Assembly (NCBI GenBank): GCA_051649245.1
Contig: JBOFGS010000012.1
Span: 104,510-168,509, forward strand
Direction: 5' to 3'
Length of the DNA: 64,000 bases
DNA from: Brevinema sp.
Lineage (GTDB): Bacteria; Spirochaetota; Brevinematia; Brevinematales; Brevinemataceae
Under the pieces are notes generated by a model. That model saw only the letters and a list, made by a program, of their open reading frames with translations, ran no database searches and was not told the DNA's origin. The translations under genes were made by a program, and so were the position numbers. Positions within the stretch are counted from its first letter, which is position 1. Every line of letters starts with the position of its first letter. Positions 29,441-55,390 of this stretch are shown one piece after another.

Positions 29441-30403
29441 TTAAAATAGAGAAATAGCTTGATAAACATCATCCAATGTATTACTGCGAGCAAGACCTGA
29501 TCTTATATCAGAGGCTCCTTCAAAGCCATTCACTAAATTCATTAACGCTCCTCTCAGTGGTGTAATAGTACTGAATTTTGTAATGTTAACCCATAATTCT
29601 GCATATTCTTTGACTAAAGAAATTAATTCTTCAGCAGTTGGATTTGTGTAAGAGCCATATGTACAAAAATCGTTTATTTGTTTAAAGAGAAAAGGTTTTG
29701 CAATAGCTCCACGTCCTAACATAATACCGTCTGCTTTGTAATGTTCTAAGATAAATTTTGCATCTTCAGGTGTTTTAATGTCTCCATTTGCAATTAATAG
29801 TTTATCCGTGGCTTGGCGTGCTCTTCGAAAACGATCCCAATCAGCAGTTCCATGCAAAAATTTGTCTTTGGTCAAACGACAATGCAAAATAATCATATCA
29901 GCATCAGATTTATCAAGCGTTCCAATGATCTGATCAAGATTATCTTCATCAAATCCAGCACGAATTTTAGCTTCAACACTGACTCCTGTATCTTTAACAG
30001 CATTGATAATTGCTGCTATTTTATGAGGTTCTTTGAGTAGATGTGAACCTGCACCGTTTTTCATTACTTTTGGTGCAGGGCATCCAAAATTAATATTAAT
30101 AGATTTTACTCCAAATATTTTTTGGATTATTTTTGAAGCTTCTGCAAAACGACTGGGTTCTTCTTTTCCAAATAACTGAATAGATGTTAGATTGGGTGCA
30201 TCGGATATGTCAGCATAACGAAATGTTTTTTGTGAATCACGAAGTACTCCTTCGACGCTTACCATTTCTGTGATTGTGTATCCAGCACCAAATTTACGAC
30301 AAAAAATCCGCATTGGCATATGACTATACCCTGCTAAAGGTGCTAAAATAAGGTTGTTGATGGTGATAATTTCGCCAAAAGATAATGACTTTATCAACGA
30401 CAT
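29441..30403 (-). CDS. tRNA-dihydrouridine synthase
   Basis: LAPLAGYSHMPMRIFCRKFGAGYTITEMVS, INFGCPAPKV and GRGAIAKPFLF are Dus-family features. Confidence 0.85.
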   Translation of the reverse strand: MSLIKSLSFGEIITINNLILAPLAGYSHMPMRIFCRKFGAGYTITEMVSVEGVLRDSQKTFRYADISDAPNLTSIQLFGKEEPSRFAEASKIIQKIFGVKSININFGCPAPKVMKNGAGSHLLKEPHKIAAIINAVKDTGVSVEAKIRAGFDEDNLDQIIGTLDKSDADMIILHCRLTKDKFLHGTADWDRFRRARQATDKLLIANGDIKTPEDAKFILEHYKADGIMLGRGAIAKPFLFKQINDFCTYGSYTNPTAEELISLVKEYAELWVNITKFSTITPLRGALMNLVNGFEGASDIRSGLARSNTLDDVYQAISLF

Positions 30404-32046
30404 TACATGCTTCCTTTTTTGATACAGTAAAATTCGATATATTCTTTTTTGTCAATAAATTTTGTTGTGTGTACAAGAATTAAGCCAGATCTCTTTGCAA
30501 GCAATTCGCCTCCTTTTAAAGACGCTCTGAAAAATCCTTTTGAAAATGCGTGAGATTCTTCAATAGGAAGACGAAATGCAACCATTCCTCCTACAGCAAG
30601 CATATTACTGATTTTTTTGATATAAGATAGAGGATCTGGTAACAGATGTAATTTATCCCAAATCGTAATAATATGATAAATAGGTTCTGTTGCGTATAAT
30701 GTTTCCATTGAGTCAAAAATTTGAATATTGTTATCAAGTGCAATTCTTCTTGCAAAACTCGCTAATTCAACACCTTGAGCATTAAATCCATTATGACATG
30801 CTTCTTGGACAAAAATACCGTGATTCGCTCCAATATCTAATAATTTATAAAAACTATGATAGCTTGGGGTAGGAAGTAATTGTTTGATGAGTTTAATACG
30901 TCGATGACTGTCTTCTTTTTGTTCAAGGACAGCTACTTTATAACTTTGTTGTAGTTGTTCGTTGTTGGATCCAATAATACTATCCGAATCGATTGCTTCT
31001 TTTGGTTTATGTAAGCTATATGCATAGGAACTATTACAATTATTACACTTAAATCTATTGTCTTCGTCAGTTCTTAGCGATGCTGTTTTATTATGTGAAC
31101 CACATAAAGGACAGAAAGCAGATCTATTTGCGATATTGTCAGAAATATCAAGCCACCAATCTGCAAAGTGAAAATCATCTGGTTTTGGTAATTTTATTGC
31201 TTGTGTGTCTTCAACAGCATTACGGATTTGCTTTGTTGTAACAAAAATGCCAAATAAAATTTTCAATCCAGGAATTGCTTGTAAGTCAAGAGCTTGATTC
31301 CAAGTGTGTGCAACAGCAATAATTTTTTTATTCGAAGCCATAGCTTCCAATAAAGTCGATCCCGGACCACAAATAATAATATCATTTTCTTGGATATATG
31401 GGAGTAAACTGTCAACATCATGTAGAACCGTTATATGAGCATTTTCTTCTTCTTGAAAAGAATAATTGTTTAAAGCTCCTGTGATGACTGTAAGACTGTA
31501 ATGTTGATCCTTTAGTGCTCTGATAATTTTTCCTGTATTATTAAAGGGATCACTTCCGCCTAAACTAATTAAAATATTTCTGGGATTATAGTTTTCTTGT
31601 AATTCAAAATATTCTTCTTTAATAGGAGTTTGGAAGAGTTCTTTGAAGTTTGCATTTTTGATTTTTCTTGAAGGAAGAGGAGCAATAAAAACTTCAGAAC
31701 ATTTTCCAAGATTGGCATTATCTAAACTAATCATAGGTATATTTAAATTATTTAAAACATCAATGAATTTTGAATTGACGTAATCACAATCAGTTATCAT
31801 TAAATCAAAATATTTTCGAGTGACAACATTTTTTTGTTCAAGATTATCATTCATACTGGAAATTTCATAAGGGATATCTTTGAGTAATTTTTCAAGAGAA
31901 GAGGTATCTTTTAGATCTGTCAAAACCCAAACAAAAGGATCATTATAATAGTTACTAATTGTTAAAGCTCGTTTTAAATGTCCAATACCATATTTTTTGC
32001 CGGATTGAATAATAAATAATACAGATAAATTTCTTTTGGTGATCAT
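30403..32046 (-). CDS. Fusion protein: PseG/SpsG-like glycosyltransferase-fold domain, 4-Cys zinc ribbon and class I SAM methyltransferase
   Basis: N-terminus has KKYGIGHLKRALTISN, ILISLGGSDP and ICGPGSTLLEAMA (PseG/SpsG-like). The middle has CPLCGS...FKCNNCNS. The C-terminus has LLDIGANHGIFVQEA...GVELA. The ATGA overlaps the tsaD stop, and there is a 1-nt overlap with the dus start. Confidence 0.6.
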   Translation of the reverse strand: MITKRNLSVLFIIQSGKKYGIGHLKRALTISNYYNDPFVWVLTDLKDTSSLEKLLKDIPYEISSMNDNLEQKNVVTRKYFDLMITDCDYVNSKFIDVLNNLNIPMISLDNANLGKCSEVFIAPLPSRKIKNANFKELFQTPIKEEYFELQENYNPRNILISLGGSDPFNNTGKIIRALKDQHYSLTVITGALNNYSFQEEENAHITVLHDVDSLLPYIQENDIIICGPGSTLLEAMASNKKIIAVAHTWNQALDLQAIPGLKILFGIFVTTKQIRNAVEDTQAIKLPKPDDFHFADWWLDISDNIANRSAFCPLCGSHNKTASLRTDEDNRFKCNNCNSSYAYSLHKPKEAIDSDSIIGSNNEQLQQSYKVAVLEQKEDSHRRIKLIKQLLPTPSYHSFYKLLDIGANHGIFVQEACHNGFNAQGVELASFARRIALDNNIQIFDSMETLYATEPIYHIITIWDKLHLLPDPLSYIKKISNMLAVGGMVAFRLPIEESHAFSKGFFRASLKGGELLAKRSGLILVHTTKFIDKKEYIEFYCIKKGSM

Positions 32047-48224: not shown

Positions 48225-49157
48225 TTAACTTGGTCGGACGACTCTTCTTTGTGCTGGTCGTTGATTTGTTGTGACTACTTTTCTTTGAACTTTTTGAGTA
48301 TTACTTCTTACAGTTTTTGTAGGAGTTCTTCTAGGTGTCGCATTAGTTTTTGTGTTGGTAGCAACAGTATTTGTAGGTTTGTTTACATAGTTAGGATCAA
48401 CAAGACGTTGATACAAATCAATACTTTTAACAAAAACATCTCCAAGAGTTTGTACTTTAAGTCCTGTTAGTGTTGTATCTAGATAGCCTTTATCACTATA
48501 AGCTCTTACTTTAAATAATTTTAAGGGACGAGCAAAAAAGGTTCTGAGATCTACAACTTCTTTTTGGTTAGGAGTAGATTTCAACCAATAGTTATAGTTG
48601 ACATCATAATCACTGAGACTTAATTCTGTTTCTTGGTTTCGTGATTGAAGAACTAATTCTGTTGAAAATCCTTCAGACACAAATTTTATTTTCGTAAAAT
48701 TCATCTTTTCTTTTTCTAATTGAAGCAATGATGCAGGAGTAAAACTAGGACGAGTTCTGATCCCACGAACAGGAGACACACGAGAAATATTATATAAAAT
48801 GGCAATTGCTAATGTACTGGTTCCACGATCTAATGTGAAAATATGTGGATAGAATGATAGTTTCCCTATATTAACACGTACTTGAGACCATGCAAAGGAA
48901 CCTGTTAATGATGGAAAAGCAAAAAATGTTGTCTCAAATAAAACTCCACGATTCCCTGTGGTTGTAGAATTGTTTTCAGCATCTTTGTGATAGATAATGC
49001 GACCATTATCGATACTGTCTTCTAACGTCTTAAATGTTGGATCTCCAGAATAGACAGTCCATTTATACTGACCAAAAAGAGCATGAGGGACAGCTAATAA
49101 GATAGCTATTATACATAACTTATAATTCAATTTGATATATGCTCGAAATAAGTTCAT
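48225..49157 (-). CDS. Exported protein with a basic Thr/Arg/Pro-rich disordered C-tail, unknown function
   Basis: I chose the ATG at 49157, 8 nt after GGGAG, giving MNLFRAYIKLNYKLCIIAILLAVPHALFG-Q. The C-terminus reads TNATPRRTPTKTVRSNTQKVQRKVVTTNQRPAQRRVVRPS. Confidence 0.5.
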   Translation of the reverse strand: MNLFRAYIKLNYKLCIIAILLAVPHALFGQYKWTVYSGDPTFKTLEDSIDNGRIIYHKDAENNSTTTGNRGVLFETTFFAFPSLTGSFAWSQVRVNIGKLSFYPHIFTLDRGTSTLAIAILYNISRVSPVRGIRTRPSFTPASLLQLEKEKMNFTKIKFVSEGFSTELVLQSRNQETELSLSDYDVNYNYWLKSTPNQKEVVDLRTFFARPLKLFKVRAYSDKGYLDTTLTGLKVQTLGDVFVKSIDLYQRLVDPNYVNKPTNTVATNTKTNATPRRTPTKTVRSNTQKVQRKVVTTNQRPAQRRVVRPS

Positions 49158-49443
49158 TCTAAAAACTCCCACTGATAATATAATATAATTTCGGTAGTTA
49201 ATCGGAAATAACTTTAATAAAATCTATAATATATTGTGATTGATATTATCATTATTTTTATTTATGAATATAAACTTTATCATACTTTATTATATCGACA
49301 ATAAGTTGAAAAAACTAAATTATTTATTATTATTTTCTATAATTTATTTTTTGGTATGTTGTAAAAAAATATGGAAATAGTATACAGATCATGATTTATT
49401 CTAAGCTATCAGATATTATATTTGTATAATTGGTTTGAAATAC

Positions 49444-52263: not shown

Positions 52264-52722
52264 ATGGATATATCAGAACGCCATTTTATTACTCATGCAG
52301 AAAACACACATCCTTTATTACAAGAAATACCTAAAGAATTTCGTAAGATATGGTTTGAACAATATGAATATTCTTCTACCGGAGAAAAATTATTTCTTAT
52401 GATGGAACGGATTTTTGAAAATCCAAATAAAAAAGACAGCCGTTTTGCTGATTTATTGACTTTTGAAGTTGCATCTTTGGATGATTTGTTGGAATGGGAA
52501 GAAGAGTATGGCGAAAAAGAATTTGTTGCTTTAGATCCTGACTATATATTTTTTGATCATCTTATTGAATCAAATAAAGCACAATTTTCAATAGGAACAT
52601 TAGACCAATCCACAATGGAATTTGATACAAGTATTGAAATTATTGTTACCTTAGCAGATGATGGTATTATCATTGATTATCAAGATGATGATGAGCCTAT
52701 ATTTTGGAAATTAATACGTTAA
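52264..52722 (+). CDS. Small acidic cytoplasmic protein, unknown function
   Basis: 152 aa, rich in D and E, starting 19 nt after plsY. I recognise no signature. Confidence 0.45.
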   Translation: MDISERHFITHAENTHPLLQEIPKEFRKIWFEQYEYSSTGEKLFLMMERIFENPNKKDSRFADLLTFEVASLDDLLEWEEEYGEKEFVALDPDYIFFDHLIESNKAQFSIGTLDQSTMEFDTSIEIIVTLADDGIIIDYQDDDEPIFWKLIR

Positions 52723-52729
52723 TATTGTC

Positions 52730-52758
52730 AAACAATCCCCTAAAGCAGGGGATTGTTT
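52730..52758. terminator. Bidirectional terminator between convergent genes
   Basis: AAACAATCCCC-taaagca-GGGGATTGTTT. Confidence 0.65.
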
Positions 52759-53563
52759 ATTTGAAATTTGATAATTGAGAAGCCCAAACAAGCAATAATT
52801 GAAGTGTTTCGATATTTTCTTCATTATTATTGTTTATGCTGAGATAGGAAACGATTTCGTCAGCAGTAATATGAAATTTTTCTAAAAGAGCAATCTGCTC
52901 TTTTTTTTCTACCTCTAGGGAGCATTCATACAGTAACTCACTAATATTCCAAGCCAAACGATGCGTCAAAGGCAATTCCGGTTGACTGTCACAATATAAT
53001 TTCAATGATGCAATAATATGTCTCCAAGCATCGTTGTATTTTTGTTGACTAACAGATAAACTGCTTAATGTCCACAAGGAATACATTCTAAAAAAGACCC
53101 CATCTTCTTTCATATCATTAAATAAAAGTAAGGATTGTTGTCTTATTTTTGAAATGGAATTCCAATTTTTTTTGAATAGATCATTTTTTGGAGTCTCAAG
53201 ATTTTGTTCTGTTTTTCCTAGTGCCGATAATAATGTGGAAAACTTGTCATTCCAGTGATCACTTTCTTGTGTAATAATATTTTCTACATTTTTATGGATA
53301 TTTGAAGAAAATAATGTTATTTGTTCTTTCATTTTATGAAGAAGTTTTTTTTCACGTTCGGATGGATGAAAATCTAATGGCAAATCAGATGTTAATGCGT
53401 TGACAATATTAGTAATGAGATTTATTTTTTGATTAAATTGACGTGTTAGATTGGTTATTTCAAGAGACATACGTTTGATTTTTTTGTTCATCATATAAAA
53501 TGCCAATAAAATACTAAGAATAAAAATAGAAGATAAAATGATTAATAATAAGAGATTAGACAT
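52757..53563 (-). CDS. N-terminally membrane-anchored helical protein, unknown function
   Basis: One TM segment (LLLIILSSIFILSILLAFYMM) followed by a long helical or coiled region. Confidence 0.45.
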   Translation of the reverse strand: MSNLLLLIILSSIFILSILLAFYMMNKKIKRMSLEITNLTRQFNQKINLITNIVNALTSDLPLDFHPSEREKKLLHKMKEQITLFSSNIHKNVENIITQESDHWNDKFSTLLSALGKTEQNLETPKNDLFKKNWNSISKIRQQSLLLFNDMKEDGVFFRMYSLWTLSSLSVSQQKYNDAWRHIIASLKLYCDSQPELPLTHRLAWNISELLYECSLEVEKKEQIALLEKFHITADEIVSYLSINNNNEENIETLQLLLVWASQLSNFK

Positions 53564-53625
53564 AGTACGACCTTTTAGAAATTATCTTTTATTATACTAT
53601 AATAAATACAAAAAACACAAGTATT

Positions 53626-54282
53626 TTAAGACAAATCATCCAAATCCCATAAAGGATTTTTATTAAGAATCTCTTTGATCGTTAATACATCCTCAGGATA
53701 GTCCACACTGACACAATTAATATCAGAAGATATATAAGGGCTTTGGGGTTCAAAAATATGAAATGTTTTACGATTTTTATATATATATTGTGTGACGTGT
53801 TCCTGTTCAAAAGGATCTGTTGATTCAATATAACTTTTTTCCAATGCTTCAAATTTAATCAATTCAACACCTGTACCTAAAGGATTCCCTAAAAAATGAC
53901 TTAAATCATAATCCCCATGCATCATAATCAAACGTTCACAGAGAATAATGGAAATTAAAGGATTATCTCCTGTAACACGCATGATGATATCTGCTCCTGA
54001 TAAATGGAAGGATCTTGCTGCTTGGTAGTATCGCTCCAAAACATGAATCTCACTACCTCCAAAAACAGGAACATTACAATTGTGTGTGTTTAAAAAATCA
54101 ATAAATTCTTTTTCTTCATTTTTTGGTGTAAGAATGACAATTTCTAAAGGAGCATGTACTTTTTGGATTCGTTGAATAACTCTTATAATTAAGGGGATTC
54201 CCAAAATATCCACAAAAGCTTTCCGAGGAAAACGCGTTGAATTTAAACGACTTTGAATACCAACAAATATTTTTTTTCTCAT
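53626..54282 (-). CDS. SpsF-like cytidylyltransferase-fold protein (CMP-sugar synthase / acylneuraminate cytidylyltransferase superfamily)
   Basis: IFVGIQSRLNSTRFPRKAF...LGIPLI, VFGGSEIHVLERY and MRVTGDNPLIS match the SpsF-type pattern. Its ATG overlaps the upstream stop as ATGA. Confidence 0.65.
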   Translation of the reverse strand: MRKKIFVGIQSRLNSTRFPRKAFVDILGIPLIIRVIQRIQKVHAPLEIVILTPKNEEKEFIDFLNTHNCNVPVFGGSEIHVLERYYQAARSFHLSGADIIMRVTGDNPLISIILCERLIMMHGDYDLSHFLGNPLGTGVELIKFEALEKSYIESTDPFEQEHVTQYIYKNRKTFHIFEPQSPYISSDINCVSVDYPEDVLTIKEILNKNPLWDLDDLS

Positions 54283-55220
54283 ATATTATAAATAAATTCT
54301 AAAAATAACGGATCTTTGGTTTTTAACTCTATAATTAATCGCAGAGTTGGATATATCTCATTCAAATAAGAAGCAATTTTTGTTTTTGTGATTGATGTGT
54401 CTGATCGTCCATGGATTATTTGAGATCGAACCTCGTATATTGTTTTGTAAAGTGTTTGATTTTCTTCAGGTGTTTTTAAATGATTTTGATTTTTTGATTT
54501 GATCATTATATGTCGAAGTAATGCTATTTTGGTTGCAAATTGCTTATTAATGGGCATCTTACTCTGACTAAAAGACGGATTATGTGCAACCAATAATTCT
54601 AAAGCAATACAATAATTAATAAATTTTGCATAAATATCATTGTTTAGATATGCATTTCTTAGAATTTTTGCTAACTGGATTGATTTTTGATGTGTTGTTT
54701 GAGCAAGTAACCCATCCCAAGCTCCCGCTTCTTGTGAAAGATATTGCAGATCAGAATCCGAATAGGGTAGGTTTGTCAATAATCGAGCGGCTTTTGGTAA
54801 TTCTTTTTTCAACGCACGTAATAATTGACGGGCAGATAAATTTTTGATATCAATTACAAATCCTGCAGGATTTCTGACGTATGTTCCATCAGATCGATAC
54901 CCTAACAAATAACCATAATCAACCAATCCTTCTTCAAAAGGAAGTTCTTTTTTTGATTCAATAACAATCCAAATCTTGGCTAATTCATGAACAAAAACTT
55001 CTGCAATAGAGTGATTTGATTGAGTCATGCCAAATGGATGAAGTGTATACAAAATACGTCTTTTTTCTTTATCAGATAAATTCCCACAAAGAATGTGTAA
55101 ATTTTCTTCAAAGATAGGAAGTTCTTCAGATCTCAGATTGCGTAATGTGATTTGATATGTATTAGATAAGGCGATCTCTTCTTTTAAGGGTCGAAAATAA
55201 AATGTTGGTAATAAATGCAC
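54279..55220 (-). CDS. Protein with a C-terminal HEPN-like helical domain (Rx4H motif) and an unknown N-terminal domain
   Basis: The C-terminal ~130 aa are helical, with YCIALELLVA...LYKTIYEVRSQIIHGRSD. The Rx4H motif RSQIIH is encoded at 54428..54411. This resembles Apea-type HEPN domains. The GTG start lies 6 nt after TAGGAA. Confidence 0.45.
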   Translation of the reverse strand: MHLLPTFYFRPLKEEIALSNTYQITLRNLRSEELPIFEENLHILCGNLSDKEKRRILYTLHPFGMTQSNHSIAEVFVHELAKIWIVIESKKELPFEEGLVDYGYLLGYRSDGTYVRNPAGFVIDIKNLSARQLLRALKKELPKAARLLTNLPYSDSDLQYLSQEAGAWDGLLAQTTHQKSIQLAKILRNAYLNNDIYAKFINYCIALELLVAHNPSFSQSKMPINKQFATKIALLRHIMIKSKNQNHLKTPEENQTLYKTIYEVRSQIIHGRSDTSITKTKIASYLNEIYPTLRLIIELKTKDPLFLEFIYNI

Positions 55221-55319
55221 AATGTATTCCTAAGCTTATTTATTTGTTGCCACATTATATATCATTTTTTATTTTCAATCAAATTATAAATTTTTATGTT
55301 CAATATCATCATGTAAACC

Positions 55320-55348
55320 TTGCGTATAACTTTAAATTATAGTATAAT
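55320..55348 (+). promoter_or_regulatory. Sigma70-like promoter for ychF (TTGCGT-17-TATAAT)
   Basis: TTGCGT is at 55320-55325 and TATAAT at 55343-55348. GGAGG precedes the ATG. Confidence 0.55.
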
Positions 55349-55390
55349 TGAAATCTCTTTTTGAAAATTTAATGCTGTGGAGGCATCGCG

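Follow-up and report, generated by a model that had tools for sequence, protein, structure and literature searches.

A putative HEPN-type ribonuclease gene beside an SpsF-like cytidylyltransferase gene in Brevinemataceae is an old core gene, and the proposed toxin-antitoxin pairing fails comparative analysis

Is a block of three minus-strand genes in the spirochaete Brevinema a newly described kind of toxin-antitoxin module, or is it an ordinary part of the chromosome? The block lies in a stretch of 64,000 nucleotides from contig JBOFGS010000012.1 of Brevinema sp. (assembly GCA_051649245.1), which we will call the window. It encodes proteins of 313, 218, and 268 amino acids and is flanked by genes on the plus strand. 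An earlier note on this DNA had proposed that the 313-aa protein is a HEPN toxin that is neutralized, via nucleotidylation, by the SpsF-like cytidylyltransferase whose gene is coupled to it, which would make the pair a variant of the HEPN-MNT systems with a new fold for the transferase. Our main result is that this combination of a HEPN toxin with a cytidine monophosphate (CMP)-sugar synthase as its antitoxin fails comparative analysis. On balance, we favor a different account, in which all three genes are vertically inherited core genes and the 313-aa protein acts as a stand-alone HEPN-like ribonuclease (RNase), with no partner and no mechanistic link to SpsF. The three genes are:

54279-55220, minus strand: open reading frame (ORF) of 313 aa with a GTG start; a two-domain protein and a core gene of Brevinemataceae
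53626-54282, minus strand: ORF of 218 aa; SpsF-like cytidylyltransferase (CTP_transf_3) whose start overlaps the upstream stop (ATGA)
52757-53563, minus strand: ORF of 268 aa; no family match, with an N-terminal hydrophobic (membrane-anchor) segment

The gene calls in the earlier note were correct. All three ORFs are present, and the GTG start of the 313-aa gene has a good Shine-Dalgarno sequence (AGGA, 8 nt upstream) and is shared by 19 homologues that start at the same position (MxLxPTFYFRP). The stop codon of the 313-aa gene (TGA, 54279-54281) and the start codon of the 218-aa gene (ATG, 54280-54282) overlap in a 4-nt ATGA, and the spacer between the 218-aa and 268-aa genes is 62 nt, both as had been described. 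The third protein begins with the hydrophobic stretch LLLLIILSSIFILSILLAFYMM, in keeping with a membrane anchor. Neither the 313-aa nor the 268-aa protein matched any family in Pfam, NCBIfam, or PADLOC. The defense check that had been proposed for the block also came back empty: with PADLOC v2, there was no match for the 313-aa or 218-aa proteins, and the 268-aa protein gave only weak, coiled-coil-type matches with E of at least 0.005.

Has the block been inserted between housekeeping genes, perhaps as a selfish element, as was previously suggested? The 313-aa protein has 20 homologues in the databases (38-100% identity), all of them from Brevinema or Brevinemataceae (Spirochaetota). In 10 of 10 distinct Brevinemataceae loci, the gene order is glyS, plsY, a gene for an acidic protein, the gene for the membrane protein, the cytidylyltransferase gene, the 313-aa gene, ychF, a TPR gene, and murG. 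(The loci that we compared with the window are L001/L002, L003, L055, L056, L057, L058, L059/L060, L061, and L008/L062.) The 268-aa protein has syntenic orthologues at all of the Brevinema loci (33-99% identity), and the GC content of the block is the same as that of its flanks. Furthermore, the divergence of the 313-aa gene keeps pace with that of its housekeeping neighbors. Its identity to the window is 98.7% in L061, 58% in L003, and 40% in L001; the corresponding values for L003 and L001 are 68.6% and 50.6% for glyS and 72% and 51.5% for plsY.

We also measured the ratio of nonsynonymous to synonymous substitution rates (dN/dS) at distances that are not saturated. For the 313-aa gene, dN/dS is 0.082 between the window and its closest relative (L061) and 0.027, with dS of 0.94, between the P0017 locus and Brevinema andersonii. 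The latter value is the lowest of six neighboring genes, including ychF. This gene is under strong purifying selection (dN/dS of 0.03-0.08), which implies that it serves the cell under natural conditions. Because synteny is conserved across the family and because divergence and selection are like those of core genes, we conclude that the block consists of old, vertically inherited, lineage-specific core genes of the chromosome, and that it is neither a mobile or defense insertion nor a home for a selfish gene.

In the assembly of the type strain of B. andersonii (GCA_900112165.1), the 313-aa gene is interrupted:

L059:7643-8578, and also in L060, minus strand: B. andersonii orthologue of the 313-aa gene, split by the gene callers into ORFs of 160 and 142 aa

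An in-frame stop takes the place of Q159 in this orthologue, which also has leucine instead of S19, a residue that is invariant elsewhere (S19L). It is 94% identical to the intact orthologue from a close relative. Because selection over that divergence is very strong, the lesion is probably recent. Together, these sequences suggest that the gene matters in nature and is dispensable in culture. As a separate observation, the stop is near the boundary between the two domains, and both halves might still be made separately.

Next to be asked is whether the cytidylyltransferase is the partner of the 313-aa protein. The earlier description of the 218-aa protein as SpsF-type was accurate. It matches CTP_transf_3 (PF02348) with E = 9e-22 and 78.4 bits (the cut-off is 22.6 bits), a precomputed match to PF02348 is present in all 95 of its homologues, and these are named SpsF or cytidylyltransferase domain-containing. 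Its closest solved structure is that of a cytidylyltransferase (6oew, 1.5e-14). The most likely product of the enzyme is a CMP-activated sugar, to be used in an envelope or flagellar glycan. The N-terminal region of TIGR04321, the "spiro-SPASM" model that is specific to spirochaetes, also matches the 218-aa protein weakly (E = 4e-4), which hints at a cytidylyltransferase-like domain with a lineage-specific role in spirochaetes.

The proposal that such an enzyme would neutralize a HEPN toxin has some points in its favor. At every Brevinemataceae locus, the two genes lie side by side. They share the ATGA overlap in the window and in L061, and there is a precedent in HepT, which is neutralized through AMPylation catalyzed by MntA (PMC7641770). 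However, the orientation of the two genes is not conserved. The transferase gene is on the same strand as the 313-aa gene, and downstream of it, in the window, L061, L003, L055, L057, and L058. The remaining loci, L001/L002, L056, L059/L060, and L008/L062 (4 of the 10 lineages), have the transferase gene on the other strand, where it converges on the 313-aa gene with an overlap of 6-14 nt between their 3' ends. In a neighbor-joining tree that we rooted with the more distant family described below, the convergent loci form a basal grade and the collinear loci form a single crown clade, which a single in-place inversion would explain, with co-transcription as the derived state. Only the window and its closest relative, L061 (98.7% identical), have the ATGA overlap; in the rest of the collinear loci, 2-92 nt separate the two genes. 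The overlap is a recent by-product of the inversion of the transferase gene in place.

We considered whether the transferase gene might lie within a site-specific invertible element, as a 20-nt inverted repeat with 80% complementarity (53573-53592 and 54285-54304 in the window) brackets it almost exactly. We rejected this idea because the repeat is at the level expected by chance in AT-rich DNA and because the tree fits one old inversion.

The two genes also differ in how they evolve. Between the window (53626-54282) and L061 (7001-7657), the transferase gene has a dN/dS of 0.245, which is the highest of seven genes, with the other six at or below 0.10 (0.08 for the 313-aa gene). These values suggest that the transferase is under relaxed or diversifying selection, and we saw no sign of co-variation between the two proteins. 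In B. andersonii, it is the HEPN-like gene that has the stop codon and the transferase is intact, which also speaks against the toxin model. Outside of the Brevinemataceae, a CTP_transf_3 gene is a neighbor in 0 of 46 loci of the wider family. In addition, the locus is a fixed part of the core genome without signs of mobility, and no member of the wider family matches a PADLOC model. The translationally coupled pair that had been envisaged does not hold up, given that the genes are on opposite strands in 4 of 10 lineages, overlap in just two loci, and are never neighbors in the wider family. The data on orientation and co-occurrence largely refute the toxin/transferase model, and the best reading of the pairing is that it reflects shared gene order and not shared mechanism.

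The earlier note had also raised the possibility that the SpsF-like enzyme works in glycan synthesis with a "PseG-like fusion" protein that is encoded elsewhere in the window:

30403-32046, minus strand: ORF of 547 aa; Methyltransf_23 at residues 384-497 is the only domain at E ≤ 1e-5

A methyltransferase domain is all that we could identify in this protein, and its gene is located between those for Dus (dihydrouridine synthase) and TsaD, neighbors that point to RNA modification and not to glycan synthesis. We therefore set aside the link between this ORF and the block as unsupported. Our scan of part of the window showed no genes for nonulosonic acids, for other glycans, or for partner steps in sugar synthesis.

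Where else is the 313-aa protein found? An exhaustive search with phmmer gave weak matches to proteins of 360-390 aa, and we then scanned genomes with an alignment of these proteins. The resulting wider family comprises 46 loci from more than 10 phyla and has members of 360-405 aa, with a two-domain layout like that of the 313-aa protein. The hosts include Chloroflexota, Nitrospirota, Cyanobacteria, Acidobacteriota, Bacteroidota, Campylobacterota, Gammaproteobacteria, Planctomycetota, Patescibacteria, Mycoplasmatota, Clostridia, and Bacilli. When aligned, the members share an N-terminal signature (Y-x2-P...S...N-P...E) and a C-terminal constellation (Glu...Lys...Tyr-x2-Arg-Ser-x3-His-Gly). The Brevinema protein is a shortened member of the family.

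The wider family has a quite different mode of inheritance from the Brevinema clade. A single metagenomic query is 68% identical both to the copy in an Anaerolinea metagenome-assembled genome (L009:4908-6035) and to the copy in a Nitrospirae metagenome-assembled genome (L010:1816-2946), which we take as a sign of horizontal transfer across phyla. Several copies are decayed (L048, L026, L038, L034, L036, and L046), being frameshifted, split, truncated, or riddled with stop codons. The neighboring genes include housekeeping genes as well as integrases, resolvases, a Tn3 transposase, Fic, type IIG restriction-modification genes, and AbiEii-like ATPases. No gene family is a conserved neighbor across these loci, and none of the 46 contains a relative of the cytidylyltransferase, the membrane protein, or the acidic protein of the window. 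A tblastn search with one member of the family found no match in collections of plasmids (PLSDB) or phages (INPHARED). Outside of the Brevinemataceae, this is a solitary accessory gene that is transferred sporadically.

If the 313-aa protein does not work with the cytidylyltransferase, then what might it do? The AlphaFold2 model of the full protein has a mean predicted local distance difference test score (pLDDT) of 89.4 and a predicted template modeling score (pTM) of 0.86, and it contains two domains. The features of the protein that we rely on are:

54837-55220, minus strand: N-terminal alpha/beta domain (approximately residues 1-128), with strands and helices in the model
54282-54773, minus strand: C-terminal helical domain (residues 150-313), the putative HEPN core
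54408-54428, minus strand: Rx4H motif R265-S-Q-I-I-H270-G271 (RSQIIHG), with the predicted catalytic arginine and histidine
54597-54599, minus strand: E208, an invariant acidic residue in helix 196-211, ahead of the insert

We think that the C-terminal domain is probably a divergent HEPN-type domain. The sequence YEVRSQIIHGRSD is present in the protein as had been reported, with the codon for R265 at 54426-54428 and that for H270 at 54411-54413. The Rx4H motif is invariant in the 20 Brevinema homologues, with the polar residue S266 after the arginine, and its conservation extends much further: across 45 sequences that span more than 10 phyla, there is no variation at E208, F228, K231, Y262, R265, S266, H270, and G271. 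The models, including one of the C-terminal domain alone (pLDDT 85), have helices at residues 177-192, 196-211, 224-242, 251-269, and 279-302. Helix 251-269 ends at the motif with R265, H270 opens a loop (270-278), and helix 279-302 follows. Helix 224-242 is an insert that carries F228 and K231 and sits between two helix hairpins. We compared this arrangement with the motif and helix layout of HEPN domains given by Anantharaman et al. 2013 (PMC3710099). In the predicted structure, the position of the motif at the end of a helix fits that layout. The invariant E208 lies in the preceding helix hairpin, and we propose, from the model, that it may correspond to HEPN helix-2. (The numbering of the helices is our own assignment.)

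The N-terminal domain is conserved as well. Y8, F9, R10, S19, R27, N28, and E33 are invariant in Brevinema, and in the wide family P11, N28, P29, and E33 each have a conservation of 90% or more. This domain (approximately residues 1-128) had no match in Pfam, the PDB, or BFVD, a library of predicted structures of viral proteins. We propose that it is a sensor or regulatory domain.

Several observations weigh against a HEPN-type RNase that acts alone. First, the acidic motif does not have the Ex3[K/R] form, as the position four residues after E208 is A or T rather than K or R. Second, no HEPN profile from Pfam, NCBIfam, or PADLOC reaches its threshold in the 45 members of the family, with a best E of 0.011. 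Below threshold, Pfam's HEPN_RiboL-PSP matches 4 of the 45 members (best E of 0.011) and MAE_28990 gives values of 0.011-0.014. A scan of the window proteins and the 45 family members against PHROGs found no significant family for the 313-aa protein. Third, profile searches of PDB sequences with the full-length and C-terminal alignments were empty. Fourth, the comparison of structures that had been suggested as a check gave no significant match to a HEPN fold: Foldseek found nothing better than E of about 1, for the full model against the PDB and BFVD or for the C-terminal model against the PDB. (HEPN proteins do recur near the top of these non-significant lists, namely Csm6 (6tug), AF0298 (2hsb), and a phage MAE_28990-like protein.) Because there is no significant match by profiles or by Foldseek, we treat the HEPN fold as putative. 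Fifth, although several proteins of the wide family are annotated in NCBI and UniProt as "HEPN domain-containing" or "Apea-like HEPN domain-containing," these names were not reproduced with local Pfam and NCBIfam searches and may be machine-predicted, so we treat them as leads only. Sixth, long fixation under strong selection is atypical for defense genes. Finally, the 313-aa gene adjoins the cytidylyltransferase gene in every Brevinemataceae lineage, which strictly allows for a functional link. The earlier placement of the motif in a HEPN-typical context is thus upheld as to its invariance and its position in the model, while similarity by profile or by fold remains below significance.

The more specific assignment to the Apea type was not borne out. 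HEPN_Apea (PF18739) and PADLOC's ApeA model had no match at E ≤ 1 among the window protein and 45 family members, and there was no match to PDB sequences; even the members that UniProt calls "Apea-like" had no match to HEPN_Apea at E ≤ 10. No other HEPN model of Pfam, PADLOC, or NCBIfam reached its threshold either, and ApeA itself has three domains in about 583 aa. Similarly, the 313-aa protein is not DARNA, which differs in architecture and has its HEPN domain at the N terminus.

We infer the following mechanism. The C-terminal domain would be a divergent, metal-independent RNase of the HEPN type. Its active site would be formed by R265 and H270 and aided by S266 and E208; other HEPN enzymes have theirs at a dimer interface, and the same is likely here. 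The N-terminal domain may gate the nuclease, by analogy to AbiJ-like proteins, ApeA, and DARNA. The gene would descend from a mobile accessory family and would have become fixed at one chromosomal site in the ancestor of the Brevinemataceae. As to its role, it could cleave RNA conditionally, in stress or defense, or it could process RNA; we lean slightly towards conditional cleavage because of the family's origin and because of the loss of the gene in a cultured strain. The SpsF-like cytidylyltransferase and the membrane protein would be long-standing neighbors and not an antitoxin or a regulator.

How do the alternatives fare? The 313-aa gene could instead be a conventional accessory gene for anti-phage abortive infection that is found at this locus by chance in the genomes that have been sequenced. 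The habits of the wider family suit this idea, as it is patchy and spreads by horizontal transfer, its copies are often decayed, and some of them are located beside integrases, restriction-modification genes, or Fic, and single-protein HEPN defenses such as ApeA and DARNA work in this way. Within the Brevinemataceae, however, the gene occupies the same site in all 10 of the distinct loci, it diverges along with the housekeeping genes, and it has a dN/dS no higher than that of ychF. There is also no match to a PADLOC model and no homologue in the phage or plasmid collections, and no defense genes flank the 313-aa gene in the window. We consider this explanation to be unlikely.

It is also doubtful that the C-terminal domain lacks nuclease activity altogether. 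On this explanation, the 313-aa protein would be a helical protein with a structural or regulatory function in an envelope or glycan pathway, along with the SpsF-like and membrane proteins, and RSxxxHG would bind a ligand or a partner. That the three genes stay together throughout the Brevinemataceae would make sense if so, as would the lack of a significant match to a HEPN profile or fold, and some HEPN-like domains are indeed non-catalytic binding domains (PMC3710099). But adjacency by itself says little in a region that is syntenic throughout, and the scanned part of the window holds no other nonulosonic-acid or glycan genes. Also, the invariant residues are retained in the wide family, which has no glycan genes as neighbors. 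And the invariant arginine, the polar residue that follows it, the histidine, and the upstream glutamate are at the positions expected for the catalytic signature of HEPN domains (PMC3710099).

We give little credence to a third alternative, in which a HEPN-type RNase, normally mobile and solitary, was domesticated in the ancestor of the Brevinemataceae and has stayed beside the SpsF-like enzyme and the membrane protein throughout the family's history because the three work jointly. If this were true, then the RNase might be tuned by its neighbor's CMP-sugar or nucleotide, or it might report on the status of the envelope glycan, and either would be a functional link between a HEPN protein and a cytidylyltransferase of a kind that has not yet been described. 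The toxin that is neutralized by the SpsF-like enzyme is, in light of the evidence on orientation and co-occurrence given above, very improbable.

The other features of the locus are:

52264-52722, plus strand: acidic ORF of 152 aa, downstream of plsY; 36 D+E versus 13 K+R
52729-52759, no strand: hairpin of 14 bp, G+C-containing, located where the 268-aa gene and the acidic ORF converge
55221-55390, no strand: divergent intergenic region of 170 nt, between ychF and the 313-aa gene

The acidic ORF is found in the same position in all of the Brevinema loci (44-99% identity) and had no family match in Pfam, NCBIfam, or PADLOC. In L001, the gene callers place it so that it overlaps the region of the start of plsY. 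The hairpin has a predicted energy of -18.4 kcal/mol (z = -5.5), and 0 of 200 shuffled sequences were as good. It is probably a bidirectional terminator, as was previously proposed. The T-run that our terminator scan requires is absent, and the scan did not flag the hairpin. In the intergenic region ahead of the 313-aa gene, there is a promoter-like sequence on the minus strand (TTGATT-17-TATAAT, 55282-55254), which we regard as a candidate promoter because such sites are no more common here than in shuffled sequence. The window contains no paralogue of the 313-aa gene. Upstream of glyS is an ORF of 315 aa (48225-49172, minus strand) with a signal-like hydrophobic segment at its N terminus and a very basic tail that is rich in Thr, Arg, and Pro; it is unrelated to the 313-aa protein.

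In place of a new toxin-antitoxin pair, our analysis describes an uncharacterized family of two-domain proteins that has a HEPN-like catalytic signature, that is present in many phyla, and that is not captured by Pfam, PADLOC, or NCBIfam. The domesticated copy in these spirochaetes would offer a convenient way into two questions, namely which target the family cleaves and which signal its N-terminal domain detects. A further lesson is how a defense-type nuclease can become a lineage-specific gene under selection at the level of housekeeping genes.

We end by comparing these proteins with known systems. The 218-aa protein resembles the SpsF/COG1861-type cytidylyltransferases, which are relatives of KdsB, NeuA, and PseF, in its strong match to PF02348. 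Unlike KdsB, it scores far below the cut-offs of the equivalog models in NCBIfam (38-60 bits, with cut-offs of 155-281), and no genes for partner steps in sugar synthesis were seen nearby.

As in the HEPN-MNT system HepT/MntA, a gene for a predicted HEPN RNase lies next to a gene for a nucleotidyltransferase. In contrast to HepT/MntA, the transferase has the CTP_transf_3 fold rather than that of MNT (the minimal nucleotidyltransferase of the Pol-beta type), the two genes are not consistently co-oriented, the transferase is absent from the wider family, and the locus is not mobile. The 313-aa protein is also twice the size of HepT, with an extra domain.

ApeA is an anti-phage nuclease of about 583 aa that cleaves tRNA anticodons, forms decamers, and is activated by deoxydinucleotides (bioRxiv 10.64898/2026.01.26.701840). 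Of its three domains, the N-terminal one is helical, the Mid domain is PafA-like, and the HEPN domain is split (bioRxiv 10.64898/2026.01.26.701840). The 313-aa protein is like ApeA in being a single polypeptide with a non-HEPN N-terminal part and a C-terminal domain that we predict to be of the HEPN type. Unlike ApeA, it has 313 aa (360-405 aa in the wider family) and two domains, of which the N-terminal one is alpha/beta.

There is also a resemblance in architecture to the single-protein HEPN systems of PMC3710099, such as the AbiJ-like and MAE_18760/MAE_28990-like proteins, which combine an N-terminal sensor with a C-terminal HEPN domain. The 313-aa protein has R-[polar]-x3-H-G where a helix ends, as they do, and its upstream glutamate and the insert between its hairpins may correspond to theirs; the variable N-terminal domain and the solitary, patchy occurrence of the wider family are similar too. 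Unlike those proteins, it does not have Ex3[K/R], a Pfam HEPN match at threshold, or a significant fold match. It also differs from them in its inheritance, as in the Brevinema clade the gene is not accessory and is instead a fixed, vertically inherited part of the core genome.

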